A DNA stretch of 64,000 nt from Candidatus Paceibacter sp. (GTDB taxonomy: Bacteria > Patescibacteriota > Patescibacteriia > S139-126): contig DYGA01000001.1 of the NCBI GenBank assembly GCA_020724865.1, forward strand, positions 89,438 through 153,437, given 5' to 3'. Below are positions 7,900 through 48,416 of the stretch, piece after piece. Each line of letters starts with the position of its first letter. The stretch's first letter is position 1. The position numbers were made by a program, and so were the translations under genes. The notes below the pieces were generated by a model. It had not been told where the DNA came from. It worked only from the letters and a program-made list of their open reading frames with translations, and did not search any database.

Positions 7900-8068
7900 A
7901 TTAAATATAAAGGTTTGCCTTGGCTATAATATCCTTGGCGGCGCGCCCGCCTAAATATATTTCGCCTTAATTTTACACTTATCATAACATTTTCTATTAA
8001 TTTTCTCACCTCTATATTTAAATACGTTATAAAAAGCTAAAAGTAACAGAAAAATTAAATTTGTTTGC

Positions 8069-8074
8069 TATAAT
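8069..8074 (+). promoter_or_regulatory. -10 box TATAAT within TTGCTATAAT, ending 6 nt before the uvrD ATG (probable leaderless transcript)
   Basis: tttgcTATAATaacccATG with no Shine-Dalgarno sequence. The same TTGCTATAAT arrangement occurs 6 nt upstream of rluD and ~70 nt upstream of tRNA-Ile. Confidence 0.5.
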
Positions 8075-8080
8075 AACCCT

Positions 8081-10090
8081 ATGACTAAAAAAATCTATAA
8101 TCTACGTACAACCAAACCAACAAAAATTCAACTTGATTACACTAAAGACTTAAATGCTGAACAGCAGTTAGTGGTAAAATCAGCCGATGGGCCCTGTTTG
8201 GTATTGGCTGGAGCCGGCAGTGGTAAAACCAGAACCTTAGTATATAGAGTGGCCTACTTACTAGAAAAAGGGGTACCGGCTGACAAAATTCTACTAATGA
8301 CTTTTACCAATAAAGCAGCTAAAGAAATGTTATGGCGCGTTGAGCAATTGCTTGGCTTTAAACCTCAGCAACTTTGGGGAGGAACCTTTCATCATATTGG
8401 CAATATGCTCTTAAGAAAATACATTCAACATCTAGGTTATAATCAAAATTATTCCATCTTTGATGAAGATGATGCAGAAACTTTATTACAATCTATCATA
8501 GCAGAAAAAAATATTAAAAAAGATAAATATTTCCCCAAAAGTGGGGTTTTGAAAAATCTTATTAGTTATAGCAAAAATTCTGGGCAACCAATAGAAAAAA
8601 TATATAAAGAAAAATTTTCTTACTTAAAAACAAACATCCTGCCTGATATTATTGACATAACTTATATTTATGAACAGCGAAAAAAACAACACAACGCTTT
8701 AGACTATGACGATTTATTGTTATTGTGGCTAAAATTAATGGAAACAAAACCTGTTGTAAGAAAGGAGATAATCAAAAAATTTCAATATATTTTGGTAGAT
8801 GAATATCAAGACACTAATCATTTACAAGCTAAAATTATTGAACACTTAAGCCAACAGCATAAAAATATTTTAGTAGTTGGAGATGACGCTCAAAGTATTT
8901 ACTCTTTTCGAGCTGCGGATATTAGCAATATTCTACAATTTCCTAAAAAAATATCTGGTACAAAAATTTTTAAACTAGAAAATAACTATCGCTCAACGCC
9001 AGAAATCTTAAAATTAGCCAACAATTCAATTAAAAATAATCTACATCAATTTCCCAAAAACTTAAAAGCTACCAGAGCCAGCGGGGAAAAACCAATCTTA
9101 ATACCCGCCCAAAATATTGAACAACAAGCACAATTTATTTCCCAAAGGATTATTGAACTCACAGAAGAAGGCTATAAATTACGAGATATAGCCGTTTTAT
9201 TTCGAGCTGATTTTCATGCTTTGGAACTTGAAATAGAATTAAACAAAAAAAATATACCCTATATTAAAAGGGGGGGAATAAAATTTTTTGAACAAGCTCA
9301 TCTTAAAGACATAATTTCTTTTTTAAAAATTTTACATAACCCTCATGATGAAATTGCCTGGACCAGAATTCTCAATCTTCAAGTTGGCATTGGCCGAGTC
9401 GGAGCACAAAAAATTATCAATCAATTTACCAGTCTTACTTTGGATAAAATATTAAATACAGACTTTATTTTACCTGCCAATTTAAAATCTACTTGGCAAA
9501 AATTTAAAACTGATTTAAATAAATTTTTTAATCATGATAAAAATGATATTGATGGTTGTATTAGAGAATTAATGTCATCATTCTATACGGTTTATCTGCA
9601 AACTAAATACGACAACGCTACCAAAAGAATCGAAGACATTGAACAACTAGAAAATTTCGCTTCAAATTATCAGCAACTTGAACAATTTTTGTCAGACATA
9701 TCTTTATCAGAAAACTTTCGCGCCGATGAAGTTAATCCTGAAAAAAATGAACCAGAAGATTTTTTAATTTTATCTACCATTCATCAAGCTAAAGGTTTAG
9801 AATGGCCGGTGGTATTTATTATAAATCTGGTTAGCGGACAATTTCCTCATGCCAAAGCTATGGAAAATAATGAGGAATTTGAAGAAGAAAGAAGATTATT
9901 TTATGTAGCTACTACCAGAGCTCAAAATTTATTATATATGGTTTATCCTAATATACTGTATAATCAATATTATGGTTTTATTTTTAGTCAACCTTCCGAA
10001 TTTATTCAAGAATTAGATAGTAACCTATATGATATTTGGAATATAACTACAACTGAGGATGAAGATTTGCCTACGATTGAATATCAATGA
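8081..10090 (+). CDS. uvrD: ATP-dependent DNA helicase UvrD/PcrA/Rep family
   Basis: Walker A LAGAGSGKTRTLVYRVAYL, motif II VDEYQDTN and helicase motifs V/VI. Confidence 0.9.
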   Translation: MTKKIYNLRTTKPTKIQLDYTKDLNAEQQLVVKSADGPCLVLAGAGSGKTRTLVYRVAYLLEKGVPADKILLMTFTNKAAKEMLWRVEQLLGFKPQQLWGGTFHHIGNMLLRKYIQHLGYNQNYSIFDEDDAETLLQSIIAEKNIKKDKYFPKSGVLKNLISYSKNSGQPIEKIYKEKFSYLKTNILPDIIDITYIYEQRKKQHNALDYDDLLLLWLKLMETKPVVRKEIIKKFQYILVDEYQDTNHLQAKIIEHLSQQHKNILVVGDDAQSIYSFRAADISNILQFPKKISGTKIFKLENNYRSTPEILKLANNSIKNNLHQFPKNLKATRASGEKPILIPAQNIEQQAQFISQRIIELTEEGYKLRDIAVLFRADFHALELEIELNKKNIPYIKRGGIKFFEQAHLKDIISFLKILHNPHDEIAWTRILNLQVGIGRVGAQKIINQFTSLTLDKILNTDFILPANLKSTWQKFKTDLNKFFNHDKNDIDGCIRELMSSFYTVYLQTKYDNATKRIEDIEQLENFASNYQQLEQFLSDISLSENFRADEVNPEKNEPEDFLILSTIHQAKGLEWPVVFIINLVSGQFPHAKAMENNEEFEEERRLFYVATTRAQNLLYMVYPNILYNQYYGFIFSQPSEFIQELDSNLYDIWNITTTEDEDLPTIEYQ

Positions 10091-10144
10091 GGCAAAATAC
10101 ATAAAATTGTGCTAAAATAAAAACGATTAATAATTATTAATTTT

Positions 10145-11209
10145 ATGTCCAGTTTAAATACAAAAAATATGAATTTAGAAAACCTATTTGAAATTGCTGT
10201 AGAAAACAATGCTTCTGATATTCATCTTTTAGTAGGTAAATCGCCTATTTTACGTGTTTCTGGAGACTTAAAAGAACTTAATGATTTACCTATTATCGTC
10301 CCTGAACTTATTCAAAAAATGATTAAAGAAGCAATAAACGAAAAACAGTATGAGACCTTTATAAAAGATCGTGAATTAGATTTTTCTTATCCTTTAAAAA
10401 ATGGCACCCGCATGCGTGTTAATCTATTTTGGGAAAAAGAAAACATGGGCCTAGTCGCTAGAGTTGTGCCCAGTAAAATTCCAGCGATGAAAGAAATTAT
10501 GATGCCTGAAGTTGTTTATCGCTTAACTAGGTTAAATCAAGGATTAGTTTTGGTAACTGGACCCACTGGTTGTGGTAAATCCACTTCTCTGGCAGCTATG
10601 ATTGAGCTGATTAACTCAGAAAGAGGGGTAAATATTGTTACTCTAGAAGATCCAATTGAATTTGTTTATAAAAACAAAAAATCTATTATTAAACAACGTC
10701 AACTTGGTTCTGATATGCTATCTTTCCAATCAGCCTTAAAACACGTTCTACGCCAAGACCCTGATGTTATTTTGGTAGGAGAAATGCGGGATTTAGAAAC
10801 AATAGCTGCAACTATTACTTTGGCCGAAACTGGACACTTAGTTTTTGCTACCTTACATACGCTCAATGCCTCTCAAACTATTGACCGTATTATTGATGTT
10901 TTTCCGCCATACCAACAACCACAAGTAAGATTACAAGTCTCAATGACACTAGCCGGTATTGTTTCACAAAGACTCCTGCCAAAAAAAGATGGCGGCATGG
11001 TGGCTACTCGTGAAATTCTTATTAATACTCCAGCTATTTCAAATTTAATAAGAGAAAATAAAATTCAACAAATTAAAACTATTATCCAAACTTCAGCCGC
11101 GGAAGGCATGATTTCTATGGATCAAGATCTAAAACGATTATACAATGAAAACTATATCGATAAAGAAACTGCCAAACAATACATGATGGATCCCAATAGT
11201 TTAAAATAA
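10145..11209 (+). CDS. pilT: Type IV pilus retraction ATPase PilT
   Basis: GLVLVTGPTGCGKSTSLAAMI Walker A, Asp box, His box and the PilT-specific AISNLIRENKIQQI motif. Its 354-aa length fits PilT rather than PilB. Confidence 0.85.
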   Translation: MSSLNTKNMNLENLFEIAVENNASDIHLLVGKSPILRVSGDLKELNDLPIIVPELIQKMIKEAINEKQYETFIKDRELDFSYPLKNGTRMRVNLFWEKENMGLVARVVPSKIPAMKEIMMPEVVYRLTRLNQGLVLVTGPTGCGKSTSLAAMIELINSERGVNIVTLEDPIEFVYKNKKSIIKQRQLGSDMLSFQSALKHVLRQDPDVILVGEMRDLETIAATITLAETGHLVFATLHTLNASQTIDRIIDVFPPYQQPQVRLQVSMTLAGIVSQRLLPKKDGGMVATREILINTPAISNLIRENKIQQIKTIIQTSAAEGMISMDQDLKRLYNENYIDKETAKQYMMDPNSLK

Positions 11210-11254: not shown

Positions 11255-11321
11255 TGATGCTTTTGTTTTACGAAATCCTAATCTATTTTGAACGAAACTG
11301 ATAACACATGAACGCAGTCAA

Positions 11322-11400
11322 ATCGGTCAGTAAAATTTCTGAAAGTCAAATCTTGGTGCAATTATATGACCAAATCCGAACTCACTTCGAGCGGGACTAA
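11322..11400 (-). repeat. Decayed copy of the tRNA-Lys 3' end (…gttcggatttggtcatataattgCACCA) plus ~45 nt of its 3' trailer
   Basis: In minus sense, cacca-agatttgactttcagaaattttactgaccgatttgactgcg aligns at ~70% with the trailer directly 3' of tRNA-Lys (cacca-gtatcaaactttcaggaattttgccgaccgattcagccgcg). The T-loop-like gttcgga is retained. Confidence 0.55.
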
Positions 11401-11511
11401 CCGCCTCGCTTCGCTCGGCGTACGCTCGGGCGCGGCGGAATTCCCCCCTTGAACCCCCCTTCCGCCGCGCCCTCGCGGGAGGCCAAAAATTTTTTCGCCG
11501 CCAAAAATCAA
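11401..11511. other. GC-rich structured island with a perfect 13-bp stem gggcgcggcggaa/ttccgccgcgccc around a 19-nt C-rich loop, plus smaller GC palindromes
   Basis: Local GC is far above the genome background. The overlapping ORFs (11327..11569, 11449..11697) are Arg/Pro-rich translation artifacts. Confidence 0.5.
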
Positions 11512-12574: not shown

Positions 12575-12597
12575 AGCAAAATTAAAAGGTTGCCGCC

Positions 12598-12721
12598 AAA
12601 GAAATCTTTGGCTCGAACCTGCGCTTGGCGAGCCGCGCTGTGCGGGGGGAGCCAGTGTTTCCATTCTCTGCCGCGCTTCGCGCGGCTGAATCGGTCGGCA
12701 AAATTCCTGAAAGTTTGATAC
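12598..12721 (-). other. tRNA-Lys 3' trailer module: conserved AACTTTcaGGAATT motif followed by GC-rich hairpins (gccgcgc-gaag-gcgcggc; ggctcg…cgagcc; ccaaag-attt-ctttgg)
   Basis: Lies directly 3' of tRNA-Lys on the minus strand. It is related to the orphan copy at 11322-11361 and more distantly to the 3' flanks of tRNA-Arg and tRNA-Leu(TAG). Confidence 0.5.
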
Positions 12722-12797
12722 TGGTGGGTCGCACAGGACTCGAACCTGTAACCAATTGCTTAAGAGGCAACTGCTCTACCAATTGAGCTAGCGACCC
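12722..12797 (-). tRNA. tRNA-Lys (anticodon CTT), CCA encoded
   Basis: Minus-sense gggtcgc-ta-gctc-aattggta-gagc-a-gttgc-ctCTTaa-gcaat-tggtt-acagg-ttcgagt-cctgt-gcgaccc-a-cca gives a cloverleaf with a 7-nt anticodon loop. Confidence 0.85.
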
Positions 12798-13022: not shown

Positions 13023-13535
13023 TTATGGTAAATTCCTATGAATTTTAGTTAAAAGAAACGGAGATAACAATGGTTTTAATTTTAATTGCTGTTTCCGCGT
13101 TAAATATTTAAACCCTTTAATATGACCAAAACAATTTTTGGCGCCACAGACACACTTGAAATCAGTACCCCACTTTTTCATATCCCACTCTGTAGTGAGG
13201 TAGTTAAAAGTTATCTCTTCATTTTTCGAAATATTTTTAATGGCAATAAACCATTTTTTTTCAGTATCAAGCTTAGTATTTGGTGAACAACTATGATTAA
13301 TAAAATCTTCTGGAACAAGATATTTTGTATCAATAAATTTATCCTTACTTATTTGCACCGCTTCCGGCGTAGAATTTGTGGCATTAACAAGCTTTCCTTT
13401 TAAAAAAATAATCTTATCACCTTTCCTAAATCTTTTATTGGCAAAAAGCGCTAATCCTTTTTTCCACACATAAACAACTTTAAGAGATTGAGGAATTTTC
13501 AAATTAAAAAGTCTTTTATTTTGCCTGATAAGCAT
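13023..13535 (-). CDS. SET-domain protein (putative lysine methyltransferase) with a post-SET Cys cluster
   Basis: SET signature motifs NHSCSPN and EEITFNY plus the post-SET CVCGAKNC. Confidence 0.75.
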   Translation of the reverse strand: MLIRQNKRLFNLKIPQSLKVVYVWKKGLALFANKRFRKGDKIIFLKGKLVNATNSTPEAVQISKDKFIDTKYLVPEDFINHSCSPNTKLDTEKKWFIAIKNISKNEEITFNYLTTEWDMKKWGTDFKCVCGAKNCFGHIKGFKYLTRKQQLKLKPLLSPFLLTKIHRNLP

Positions 13536-15189: not shown

Positions 15190-15477
15190 TTAATTTTCTT
15201 TAACTTTCAAAGCGTCTTTTAAAGTTTTGCCAGCCTTAAACTTTGGCACTATTACACTTGGAATTTTCATTGGTTCATTTGGTTTTTGCGGATTAACACC
15301 CATACGAGCATGTCGGTTACGAGCAGAAAAAGTACCAAAACCAGTAATTGTTACTTCGTTGCCAGCTTTCAAAGTGTCGATGATTAGTTCAACCATTGAA
15401 TTTACTAAATGCTCGGTTTCTTTTTTTGATATACCAGATTTATCTGATAATTTTTGGATAAATTCTATTTTGTTCAT
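15190..15477 (-). CDS. hup: DNA-binding protein HU
   Basis: MNKIEFIQKLSDKSGISKKETEHLVNSMVELI… and the GFGTFSARNRHARMGVNPQKPNEPMKIP arm region. Confidence 0.9.
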   Translation of the reverse strand: MNKIEFIQKLSDKSGISKKETEHLVNSMVELIIDTLKAGNEVTITGFGTFSARNRHARMGVNPQKPNEPMKIPSVIVPKFKAGKTLKDALKVKEN

Positions 15478-23626: not shown

Positions 23627-23703
23627 GCGCGTATAGCTCAGTTGGTTAGAGCACCACTCTTATAAAGTGGGGGTCGATGGTTCAAGTCCATCTACGCGCA
23701 CCA
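23627..23703 (+). tRNA. tRNA-Ile with anticodon TAT (decodes AUA), CCA encoded
   Basis: gcgcgta-ta-gctc-agttggtta-gagc-a-ccact-ctTATaa-agtgg-gggtc-gatgg-ttcaagt-ccatc-tacgcgc-a-cca. The anticodon stem is 5 bp, which places TAT at positions 34-36. Confidence 0.8.
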
Positions 23704-28920: not shown

Positions 28921-29032
28921 AGTTCCCGCGCCGACCTACTTTCCCCAGATGAGTATCATCGGCGCTGATAGGCTTAACTTCCGTGTTCGGAATGAGAACG
29001 GGTGTGGCCCTATCGCTGTAGGCACGGGAACT
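28921..29032 (-). rRNA. rrf: 5S rRNA
   Basis: Minus-sense agttcccgtgcctacagcgatagggccacacccgttctcattccgaacacggaagttaagcct…ggcgcgggaact. Helix I closes the ends. Confidence 0.9.
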
Positions 29033-29079
29033 ATATATCTTATTTATAATTAAATAACTAAATAATTAGTCAATACAAT

Positions 29080-32234
<3,155 letters not shown>

Positions 32235-46885: not shown

Positions 46886-48370
<1,485 letters not shown>

Positions 48371-48416
48371 AGTGAGAATTGATTGATCTCAAAATATGAG
48401 ATCTGACTCTCAAAAG

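Follow-up and report, generated by a model that had tools for sequence, protein, structure and literature searches.

SET-domain enzymes are the textbook writers of chromatin marks, and nearly all characterised members methylate lysine residues in proteins. Histone lysine methyltransferases (KMTs) of the SET1/MLL, SET2/NSD/ASH1L and G9a types carry a SET-I insert of ~12-16 residues and the tyrosine of a YxG motif, work with pre-SET regions or partner subunits and act on histone substrates. In histone-type enzymes (SET1/MLL, SET2, SUV39, EZH), the insert makes up one wall of the peptide groove and the tyrosine lines the lysine channel. To our knowledge, BurB alone has shown the SET fold acting on a free metabolite. 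This protein of Burkholderia thailandensis (PDB 9l4t/9l4v; 172 aa) is a SET-domain methionine S-methyltransferase that methylates the sulfur of methionine, and its gene lies in a polyketide/NRPS cluster, not in a polyamine operon. Its Y124A variant is inactive, His93 contacts the adenine of SAM and the main chain of residues 127-132 binds the substrate methionine. The known activity closest to our proposal below is that of plant putrescine N-methyltransferase, which carries out SAM-dependent polyamine-type N-methylation; this eukaryotic enzyme is of the Rossmann-fold class I type, derives from spermidine synthase and has a fold unrelated to SET. Among archaea, the one SET protein with measured activity is Go1-SET of Methanosarcina mazei (AAM32541), which methylates K37 of MC1-alpha and H4K5 in vitro (PMC3980110). 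Secreted bacterial SET effectors are also known, including LegAS4/RomA of Legionella, NUE of Chlamydia, BaSET of Bacillus anthracis and BtSET (PMC3980110).

The window, meaning the whole analysed stretch of 64,000 nucleotides, has a GC content of ~0.32 and a 16S rRNA gene unlinked from 23S-5S, and the nearest source-named homologues are Patescibacteria/Parcubacteria MAGs; the candidate-phylum, reduced-genome setting supposed in an earlier note on this DNA is plausible. The earlier note had read one gene of the window (Table 1) as encoding a SET-domain methyltransferase with the motifs NHSCSPN, EEITFNY and CVCGAKNC. All three motifs were located by translation, the first two being the NHxCxPN and ExxF/YxY signatures of the SET pseudoknot active site. 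PF00856 matches the protein over positions 1-104 of its 105 (50.1 bits, cutoff 22.4; E = 4.1e-13), while no NCBIfam model matches it. Structure prediction (AF2) gives a confident SET-fold model (pLDDT 92.7) with BurB as the nearest solved structure by a small margin; as the fold matches to BurB and to histone KMTs differ by only 0.1 Z unit, this ranking is not evidence on the substrate. The SET domain, post-SET and C-terminal tail occupy all 170 residues, with no further Pfam domain, and contigs of up to 346 kb from other samples encode an identical protein. Judged by its sequence, the gene product is a small, intact SAM-dependent SET-domain methyltransferase.

Table 1. Positions of the SET gene, its motifs and two neighbouring genes in the window.
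Feature	Position	Strand	Basis
SET-domain methyltransferase, 170 aa, complete CDS	13023..13535	-	ORF list; ATG start, stop codon included
N-terminal SET part	13398..13460	-	K26-G27, family version of the GxG SAM loop
NHSCSPN, residues 80-86	13278..13298	-	translation
EEITFNY, residues 106-112	13200..13220	-	translation
TTEWD, family-specific motif directly after the catalytic Tyr, putative substrate-binding segment	13182..13196	-	homologue alignment
Post-SET CxCx4C, CVCGAKNC (C128, C130, C135)	13131..13154	-	translation
Conserved C-terminal tail GFKYLTRKQQLKLKPLLSPFLLTK, two predicted helices	13044..13115	-	homologue alignment and AF2
HU gene (PF00216, Bac_DNA_binding)	15190..15477	-	Pfam E = 4e-28; 1655 bp from the SET gene
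tRNA-Lys(CTT), neighbour only	12722..12797	-	ARAGORN and Rfam; 225 bp downstream of the SET gene

The residues expected of an active enzyme are in place. K26 and G27 are nearly invariant in the homologue alignment, N80-H81 is predicted to bind SAM and C83 to complete the post-SET zinc site as its fourth ligand. Across 48 homologues, H81, C83 and Y112 never vary, and N80 is at least 90% conserved. The catalytic tyrosine and histidine, on which the earlier note had hinged its assignment, align with their BurB counterparts, the putative active-site residue Y112 with Tyr124 and H81 with His93, and F110, at the predicted Phe/Tyr-switch position, aligns with the first tyrosine of 'TYDY' in MLL4. Within the TTEWD segment, which aligns with BurB 127-132, conservation is complete for T114 and at least 90% for T115, E116 and D118. 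The zinc cluster was rightly called intact: C128, C130 and C135 are present together with C83, and all are invariant in the homologue alignment and in every context group, so that the predicted four-cysteine cluster is complete. In the tail, G141, L145, P159 and L161 are invariant and helices are predicted at 147-152 and 159-167; block-mean pLDDT is 94 over residues 141-160 and falls to 74 over the last ten (161-170).

BurB and the window protein are both stand-alone minimal SET proteins in which the domain, free of a SET-I insert, is followed by a post-SET CxCx4C. BurB also shares with the family 'Y-x-[ST]-T-E' past the catalytic tyrosine, 'I-x-G-x-K-x-L' past the post-SET and the absence of the YxG tyrosine. 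It is the top PDB match to the window protein, although at only 24-25% identity, and differs in having Leu92 (LLHSC) instead of the SAM-binding Asn (NHSC) of the window protein, His81 in place of F67 and no counterpart to the tail end L-x-P-x-L-S-P-F-L. Histone KMTs lack the helical C-terminal tail and TTE[WY]D. Against the family profile, MLL4 and MLL1 need an insertion of ~12-16 residues, whereas BurB aligns almost without gaps. At the YxG site, F44-L45-K46-G47 of the window protein replaces the histone-KMT motif: 'EYIG' of MLL4 and 'RVSG' of BurB pair with the family's 'klkg', and the tyrosine position is L/M/I/F/C across the family and L45 here. These features bear on the reading that the enzyme methylates lysine in a conserved protein of its own cell, be it HU or another nucleoid protein, a ribosomal protein, a translation factor or, in DHS-linked archaea, the deoxyhypusine aminobutyl end on aIF5A. 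The N-H and Tyr catalytic residues are those of such enzymes, histone KMTs score close behind BurB, NCBI names relatives 'SET domain-containing protein-lysine N-methyltransferase', and Go1-SET, likewise a small stand-alone prokaryotic SET protein, has a protein as its substrate. However, the YxG tyrosine and the SET-I element of the peptide groove are both absent, and together with the evidence from distribution and gene context given below this makes a protein substrate rather unlikely.

The window protein belongs to a prokaryotic family of ~165 aa that is defined by a minimal SET domain, a post-SET, the motif NY[LN]TTE[WY]D and a conserved helical tail, G[FY][KR][YH]L..Q..L.P.L[SA]P[FYH]L; its own versions are NYLTTEWD and GFKYLTRKQQLKLKPLLSPFL. 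Used as a search motif, NY[LN]TTE[WY]D matched 63 loci in genomes and over 500 in metagenomes, and the family comprises 191 clusters at 50% identity (E <= 1e-30). When the 'Methanosarcinales' member L015 served as the query, all proteins recovered were of the Nanoarchaeia type. A Woesearchaeota archaeon encodes a protein 70% identical to that of the window, a Lentisphaerota MAG one 73% identical, and homologues 54-73% identical occur in five bacterial phyla. This distribution argues against a target specific to the bacterial nucleoid or to a host, and any protein target would need to be universal. The family has spread by horizontal transfer. It does not appear to be phage- or plasmid-borne, since viral contigs hold only distant relatives (27-36% identity), a phage collection gave no match and plasmids gave four Streptomyces matches in uninformative context.

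Ultra-small or predatory lineages (CPR, DPANN, Omnitrophota) are over-represented in the clade of the window protein. A group joining the window subclade with Omnitrophota members linked to homospermidine synthase (HSS) was recovered in 94 of 100 neighbour-joining (NJ) bootstrap trees; the window protein is 58-60% identical to the Omnitrophota HSS-operon proteins and, of 37 positions with at least 90% conservation across operon-linked SET proteins, retains the conserved residue at 35. The split of homospermidine-linked from ATP-grasp/NRPS-linked members appeared in 21/100 trees. A deep 'homospermidine clade' of all linked lineages was also considered and set aside: its exact set was found in 0/100 bootstraps and a grouping that excluded the other clades in 21/100, and for this reason only the clade with 94% support is relied on.

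Where the gene neighbourhoods of relatives are conserved, they belong to small-molecule amine metabolism, and in the window clade to homospermidine biosynthesis. The SET gene lies beside bacterial HSS on the same strand in three settings (HSS E ~1e-98 to the PDB HSS): in Omnitrophota, where the two genes are 20 bp apart, in Obscuribacterales, with the order HSS-GNAT-SET, and in one MAG (L023), with the order HSS-PLP decarboxylase-SET. It is also found beside DHS/SpeY (PF01916, E 1e-76 to 1e-93), which is not homologous to HSS. In a Woesearchaeota locus (L013), DHS/SpeY is flanked by two SET paralogues; on two unassigned metagenome contigs, the SET gene adjoins it (L108) or lies ~1.2 kb away with two ORFs between (L148). 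In CPR Doudnabacteria (L043/L152), the order is decarboxylase-SpeY-SET-arginase-family ureohydrolase, the SET copy of this operon being frameshifted with one zinc-binding Cys lost. Genes of the ornithine/arginine-decarboxylase family and GNAT genes are frequent alongside HSS- or SpeY-linked SET genes, and in one lineage SET is fused to a PLP decarboxylase (P0227/L121). Overall, the family is an operon partner of HSS or SpeY in seven or more lineages, and its scattered occurrence across domains matches theirs; on the homospermidine-linked side of the NJ tree, however, such linkage was found in only about a fifth of the loci (11 of 51), these belonging to five lineages. The ~20 loci closest to the window gene (54-83% identity; CPR, Woesearchaeota, Lentisphaerota, Planctomycetales and Elusimicrobia) carried neither HSS nor DHS/SpeY, nor an AR-fold decarboxylase, an agmatinase or a related GNAT, in the flanks examined. 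Kinds of organisms that carry the SET family, namely CPR (Staskawiczbacteria) and DPANN (Nanoarchaeota), also commonly possess ODC-HSS cassettes. HD-domain proteins were rejected as a shared partner, those near SET or HSS in three loci being mutually unrelated.

Both HSS and SpeY are NAD-dependent aminobutyl transferases and not methyltransferases. The HSS route starts from putrescine and the SpeY route from agmatine (Li et al., J Biol Chem 2026; PMC13625781), and homospermidine is the sole metabolite common to both. That paper covers HSS and SpeY gene clusters and mentions neither a SET gene nor methylation; no methylated homospermidine from bacteria or archaea was found in the searchable literature, nor, in the literature searched, a report of homospermidine methylation by any family member. 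Linkage to two non-homologous families of metabolite enzymes, together with a decarboxylase fusion, is hard to square with a protein substrate. DHS modifies a protein lysine in archaea and adjoins SET in L013 and L108, as a protein target would suggest, yet the bacteria with HSS or SpeY linkage are without aIF5A.

Other clades of the family raise the alternative of a different free metabolite, that is, N-methylation of free lysine, ornithine or a diamine, or a BurB-like S-methylation of methionine. There, the SET gene stands directly upstream of Pls/PosA-type (poly-lysine-synthetase-like) NRPS genes at 11 loci, adjoins or is fused to ATP-grasp ligases at ~24 loci, and is accompanied by AlaDH/PNT-family dehydrogenases. 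BurB is the top match in structure as well as in sequence, and the decarboxylases that occur as neighbours and as fusion partner have lysA-type models as their best NCBIfam match, although below cutoff. Against this, the NRPS- and ATP-grasp-linked members are only 28-39% identical to the window protein, even though the tail is kept in HSS-, DHS-, NRPS- and ATP-grasp-linked members alike, and HSS is the only linkage within the well-supported window clade. Position 67 is His in BurB and in the ATP-grasp and NRPS clades and Phe in the window clade; together with the lost SAM-binding Asn and the low identity of BurB, this renders such a substrate improbable for the window protein.

Within the window itself, the HU gene that the earlier note had placed 1.7 kb from the SET gene is indeed there (1655 bp), and its proximity would favour a protein target. 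In a tblastn comparison with all loci, HU and four other neighbours of the SET gene were found only in contigs of the same organism, and HU is not beside SET at ~180 other family loci, which speaks against the proposal that HU is the substrate. Of the flanking ORFs, neither the upstream pair (183 and 122 aa) nor the downstream pair (283 and 95 aa) matches a Pfam model, and nothing homologous to them occurs beside other SET genes. In the 64-kb window, tblastn detected no gene for HSS or DHS/SpeY, nor one for an AR-fold decarboxylase, an agmatinase or a related GNAT, and its flanks hold no NRPS or PKS. Rfam searches of the GC-rich patches flanking the SET gene returned only the tRNA, and scans for promoters and terminators at the gene gave the same result as shuffled sequence. 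A 38-nt direct repeat overlaps the 3' end of tRNA-Lys(CTT). As a separate observation, the SET gene is located near GIY-YIG and serine-recombinase genes in some Parcubacteria.

The second substrate proposed in the earlier note, a host or partner protein methylated by an episymbiont effector, fits a CPR-like genome, as many CPR are episymbionts, and a clade enriched in ultra-small or predatory lineages; bacterial origin and the SET core are likewise common to the window protein and the secreted effectors. However, the secretion or targeting region and the extra domains of the LegAS4/RomA/NUE type are absent, as the SET domain and tail fill the 170 residues, and the N-terminus, judged by eye, is unlike a signal peptide. 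Near-identical proteins moreover occur in lineages with very different partners and in biosynthetic operons, and no secretion gene is linked to SET in any locus. An effector role is thus highly improbable. Of the interpretation given in the earlier note, the SAM-dependent SET methyltransferase stands, and neither HU nor a host protein is retained as its substrate.

Since its relatives reside in homospermidine operons and not next to HU, a polyamine is a likelier target of the window protein than a histone-like or host protein. We therefore put forward, tentatively and as the candidate function we favour, that it is a cytoplasmic homospermidine or polyamine N-methyltransferase. Counting against this proposal are the lack of polyamine genes in the window and in the flanks examined of the ~20 closest loci, the small share of linked loci on the homospermidine-linked side of the tree, the 21/100 support for the deep split, the damaged Doudnabacteria copy and the failure of the literature search to turn up methylated homospermidine. 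More broadly, gene contexts and motifs are best explained if the family behaves as metabolite-tailoring enzymes and not as chromatin enzymes. For the window clade, the most likely substrate would be the terminal primary amine of sym-homospermidine or of a close 4-aminobutyl polyamine, homospermidine being presumed to occur in this organism. The terminal aminobutyl amine of homospermidine is chemically equivalent to a free-standing lysine side chain. In the proposed mechanism, SAM would be held by N80-H81 and the post-SET/zinc lid, the aminobutyl arm would enter the Lys-type channel formed by Y112, F110 and W117, and the acidic pair E116/D118 at the channel mouth may grip the internal or distal ammonium, after which the methyl group would be transferred through SN2 attack. 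Having Phe at the Phe/Tyr switch would permit multiple methylation.

More tentatively still, the window protein and the rest of its clade may be the first polyamine N-methyltransferases with a SET domain. Their substrate would be homospermidine from either the HSS or the SpeY route, and their product an N-methylated, perhaps even quaternary, homospermidine. By the same provisional proposal, this product would be a compound not yet described from CPR bacteria, DPANN archaea, Omnitrophota or Melainabacteria.

What emerges is a large, horizontally mobile prokaryotic SET family whose conserved neighbourhoods are metabolic, comprising HSS, SpeY/DHS, polyamine-type decarboxylases, GNAT acetyltransferases, poly-lysine-type NRPSs and ATP-grasp ligases. 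For hundreds of genomes, the proposed reading would correct the default annotation as 'protein-lysine N-methyltransferase' as well as the account based on HU or host effectors. If the proposed activity is true, N-methylation would be a new tailoring step in bacterial and archaeal polyamine metabolism, coming soon after the two routes to homospermidine were worked out (J Biol Chem 2026), and new metabolites would be predicted in ultra-small, host-dependent microbes. It would also bear on the origin of lysine-methylating SET enzymes, as the SET chemistry of chromatin would be mirrored widely among prokaryotes by enzymes whose target, the 4-aminobutyl group, amounts to a free 'lysine side chain'.

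The 170-aa protein encoded in the window matches the Pfam SET profile (PF00856) with 50.1 bits (E = 4.1e-13; gathering score 22.4) and covers nearly the whole profile, which bears out the assignment made in the earlier note from the sequence alone; none of the NCBIfam models match it. Translation also places the three motifs quoted in that note, NHSCSPN, EEITFNY and CVCGAKNC, in the reading frame. In an alignment of 48 homologues, H81, C83, Y112, C128, C130 and C135 (numbered as in the window protein) are invariant and N80 is almost invariant, so that the zinc site retains its four ligands, and both the Asn-His pair that binds SAM and the active-site Tyr are preserved. The gene is real and under selection: other samples yielded contigs, among them one of 346 kb, that encode an identical protein, and one further contig carries a variant with 99% identity. 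We regard it as close to certain that the window gene encodes an intact SET-domain methyltransferase.

Positions of the SET gene, its motifs and other features of the window, and of two gene arrangements in relatives
Feature	Position	Strand	Basis
SET-domain CDS, N-terminus MLIRQNKRLF	13023-13535	-	ORF list, translation
NHSCSPN	13278-13298	-	translation
EEITFNY	13200-13220	-	translation
CVCGAKNC	13131-13154	-	translation
HU gene	15190-15477		PF00216
38-nt direct repeat, first copy	11321-11358		
GC-rich patch	11390-11480		
GC-rich patch	12587-12687		
38-nt direct repeat, second copy	12689-12726		
tRNA-Ile, anticodon TAT (UAU)	23627-23703		
23S-5S rRNA	28923-32224		
16S rRNA	46887-48371		
Woesearchaeota locus L013, SET and DHS genes	8016-10169		
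Doudnabacteria operon, contig L043	5438-9374		
Doudnabacteria operon, contig L152	3438-7374		

The protein belongs to a close-knit family whose members stand alone and measure ~155-175 aa; a word-indexed search for it returned 160 matches, many at 65-83% identity to the window protein, and an exhaustive search 191 clusters at 50% identity (E <= 1e-30). Its hallmarks are an invariant NY[LN]TTE[WY]D immediately past the catalytic Tyr, a post-SET CxCx4C and a conserved tail of ~30 residues, G[FY][KR][YH]L..Q..L.P.L[SA]P[FYH]L, predicted to form two helices packed against the SET domain. Members are scattered very unevenly over bacteria and archaea: identity to the window protein is 79% in a Patescibacteria MAG, 73% in a Lentisphaerota MAG, 70% in a Woesearchaeota archaeon, 60% in Planctomycetales, 58-60% in Omnitrophota, 56% in Elusimicrobia, and 27-45% both in Nanoarchaeia, Aenigmatarchaeota, Bathyarchaeota and Promethearchaeota and in Obscuribacterales, Proteobacteria, Actinomycetota and Gemmatimonadota. 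That proteins from different phyla and domains are so similar speaks for horizontal transfer, and such a spread requires a substrate that exists in every carrier host; an effector directed at a host, also considered in the earlier note, is very improbable. In Parcubacteria (seven loci), a gene for a small GIY-YIG protein precedes SET and a large serine recombinase lies near, an arrangement that suggests the gene is carried by a mobile segment; in CPR, the SET gene is mostly solitary, sometimes close to GIY-YIG or recombinase genes. Some members are polyproteins in which as many as nine SET copies follow one another (P0143, 1449 aa; P0144, P0145, P0146); visual inspection of P0143 suggests an alternation of intact and degenerate copies. 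Together with two-copy proteins (e.g. P0147, 301 aa), these polyproteins hint at an enzyme that works as a dimer like BurB, the SET-domain methionine S-methyltransferase of Burkholderia thailandensis, which is a dimer in the crystal and a tetramer in solution.

BurB is a 172-aa enzyme that S-methylates free methionine (PMC12542666). It ranks above histone methyltransferases by a small margin, a ranking that is no proof. BurB and the family align nearly without gaps, whereas MLL proteins have 12-16 additional residues that form a SET-I segment; at the Tyr position of the histone-KMT YxG, the family has Leu and BurB has Val. Y112 corresponds to BurB Tyr124, whose Y124A mutant is inactive, H81 to the adenine-contacting His93, and the family TTEWD segment to BurB 127-132, where the substrate is held by the backbone. 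F110 aligns with the first Tyr of the MLL 'TYDY', a position that we take to be the Phe/Tyr switch of the work on DIM-5, SET7/9 and MLL1. Phe at this switch is linked with multiple methylation, with which F110 would be compatible. The window protein is probably a SET enzyme that acts on small molecules, a type of which BurB has been the sole representative, and the substrate class predicted for it is new; that it acts on methionine itself, as BurB does, or on some other free amine appears improbable.

Gene neighbourhoods of relatives were gathered from 63 genome, 80 metagenome and 17 viral-contig loci and from several contigs found via exact protein look-up; neighbouring ORFs were clustered, and the clusters were identified by Pfam, NCBIfam and PDB searches. 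Four contexts recur: homospermidine synthase (HSS), deoxyhypusine synthase or its homologue SpeY (DHS/SpeY), PLP decarboxylases and, in distant members only 28-39% identical, NRPS or ATP-grasp enzymes. HSS lies 20 bp upstream of SET on the same strand in Omnitrophota (L002-4, L072/73, L099), while the gene order is HSS-GNAT acetyltransferase-SET on five or six Obscuribacterales contigs and HSS-PLP Orn/Arg-type decarboxylase-SET in MAG L023; the three HSS groups are mutually 39-56% identical, so that these associations would be old or independent. DHS/SpeY genes (PF01916, E 1e-76 to 1e-93) adjoin SET in Woesearchaeota L013, on contigs L108 and L148 (in the latter across ~1.2 kb with two ORFs) and in Doudnabacteria. 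In L013, the deoxyhypusine synthase gene lies between two different SET paralogues, one convergent to it and the other immediately upstream on the same strand. The Doudnabacteria (CPR) operon, the same on both contigs, reads PLP decarboxylase-DHS/SpeY-SET-arginase-family ureohydrolase and equals the agmatine/SpeY homospermidine pathway of Li et al. (J Biol Chem 2026, PMC13625781) with an inserted SET gene. This SET copy may be decaying, since its reading frame is broken twice, each time at a homopolymer run, and the third post-SET zinc Cys is gone. PLP decarboxylases of the Orn/DAP/Arg family stand beside SET at L023, L039, L043 and L148, and in P0227 (L121) decarboxylase and SET form one fusion protein. 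Just downstream of SET, 11 loci from Actinomycetota, Acidobacteriota, Verrucomicrobiota and Sphingomonas MAGs encode an NRPS of ~1350 aa (gap 50-140 bp in ten, ~1.7 kb in L046) with an A-T-Pls/PosA-type terminal architecture like that of poly-lysine synthetases (TIGR02353 346 bits, under its cutoff), an arrangement that parallels BurB, which provides an assembly line with a modified amino acid. At ~24 loci, ATP-grasp enzymes of the D-Ala-D-Ala-ligase type either neighbour a stand-alone SET or carry a second SET domain as a fusion, often in the company of ABC exporters and AlaDH/PNT-family dehydrogenases; such loci probably represent metabolite gene clusters that await characterisation.

The non-homologous HSS and SpeY/DHS define two mutually exclusive routes, one from putrescine to homospermidine, the other from agmatine via bis-guanidino-homospermidine to homospermidine by SpeY and a ureohydrolase, and homospermidine is their sole common metabolite (PMC13625781). 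As SET is repeatedly operonic with both enzymes, the simplest account is that it acts on homospermidine; the operons also hold a GNAT of polyamine type and decarboxylases that form precursors. In chemical terms, the terminal 4-aminobutyl-ammonium of homospermidine is a lysine side chain, the canonical SET substrate. An endogenous protein lysine is a less probable target. The HU gene does lie 1655 bp from SET, as the earlier note had it, but HU, one of its suggested substrates, fares poorly: among the loci compared, HU stands beside SET only in the source organism, and 70%-identical SET proteins occur in archaea, which generally lack HU. For a protein lysine speak the almost level fold scores to histone KMTs, the methylation of MC1-alpha by the Methanosarcina mazei protein Go1-SET (PMC3980110), and the modification of aIF5A by archaeal DHS, as deoxyhypusine, too, has a terminal 4-aminobutyl amine. 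For the window protein, our tentative assignment is N-methylation of homospermidine or a related polyamine.

Neighbour-joining trees of 105 family members with BurB and MLL4 (100 bootstrap replicates) place the HSS-operon Omnitrophota in one clade with the window protein and its relatives from CPR, DPANN and Lentisphaerota (94/100); within that clade the Omnitrophota sequences are inseparable from the other members; the DHS-linked Woesearchaeota group joins it in 51/100. Operon-linked SETs share 37 positions with a conservation of at least 90%; the window protein matches 35 of them, including F67, which is His in the ATP-grasp clade, the NRPS clade and BurB. A deep grouping of all homospermidine-linked lineages is unsupported (21/100), and linkage to homospermidine genes is found at 11 of 51 loci on that side of the tree, about a fifth, in five lineages. 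The flanks examined of the ~20 closest relatives (>=54% identity) hold no HSS or DHS, and the 64-kb window no HSS, DHS, AR-fold decarboxylase, agmatinase or related GNAT. ODC-HSS cassettes are common in CPR and DPANN, with HSS 64-79% identical across the bacterial-archaeal divide, making homospermidine plausible as substrate there; six two-gene examples come from Staskawiczbacteria (CPR), Nanoarchaeota (DPANN) and an 845-kb metagenome scaffold.

The source genome looks CPR/Patescibacteria-like, given its low GC (~0.32), unlinked 16S and 23S-5S rRNA genes (~14.7 kb apart) and nearest source-named homologues, which come from Patescibacteria/Parcubacteria MAGs. The 23S match of 3141 nt exceeds the 2925-nt model, which suggests at least one insertion. 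A tRNA-Ile with a UAU anticodon, uncommon in bacteria, is followed by tRNA-Val(GAC). The SET gene adjoins tRNA-Lys(CTT), whose 3' end is overlapped by the second copy of a 38-nt direct repeat (copies 79% identical). The repeats enclose ~1.37 kb with two membrane-like ORFs that have no Pfam match and GC-rich hairpins, with GC reaching 0.69; an Rfam search of this region gave no family match. In other samples, the contigs of this organism stop 430-600 bp downstream of SET, so the region looks like a strain-variable or insertion spot.

Our literature searches on SET and polyamines or homospermidine, and on methylated homospermidine, returned nothing relevant, and the study that maps HSS/SpeY gene clusters mentions neither SET nor methylation (PMC13625781). 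The family-wide link between SET and homospermidine biosynthesis appears to be new to the literature. Among ultra-small prokaryotes, homospermidine synthesis itself seems to be widespread and to have been passed on laterally, and the conserved contexts of this BurB-like prokaryotic family are amine and polyamine metabolism; the main interest lies in this family-wide tie to homospermidine biosynthesis, more than in the single window gene.
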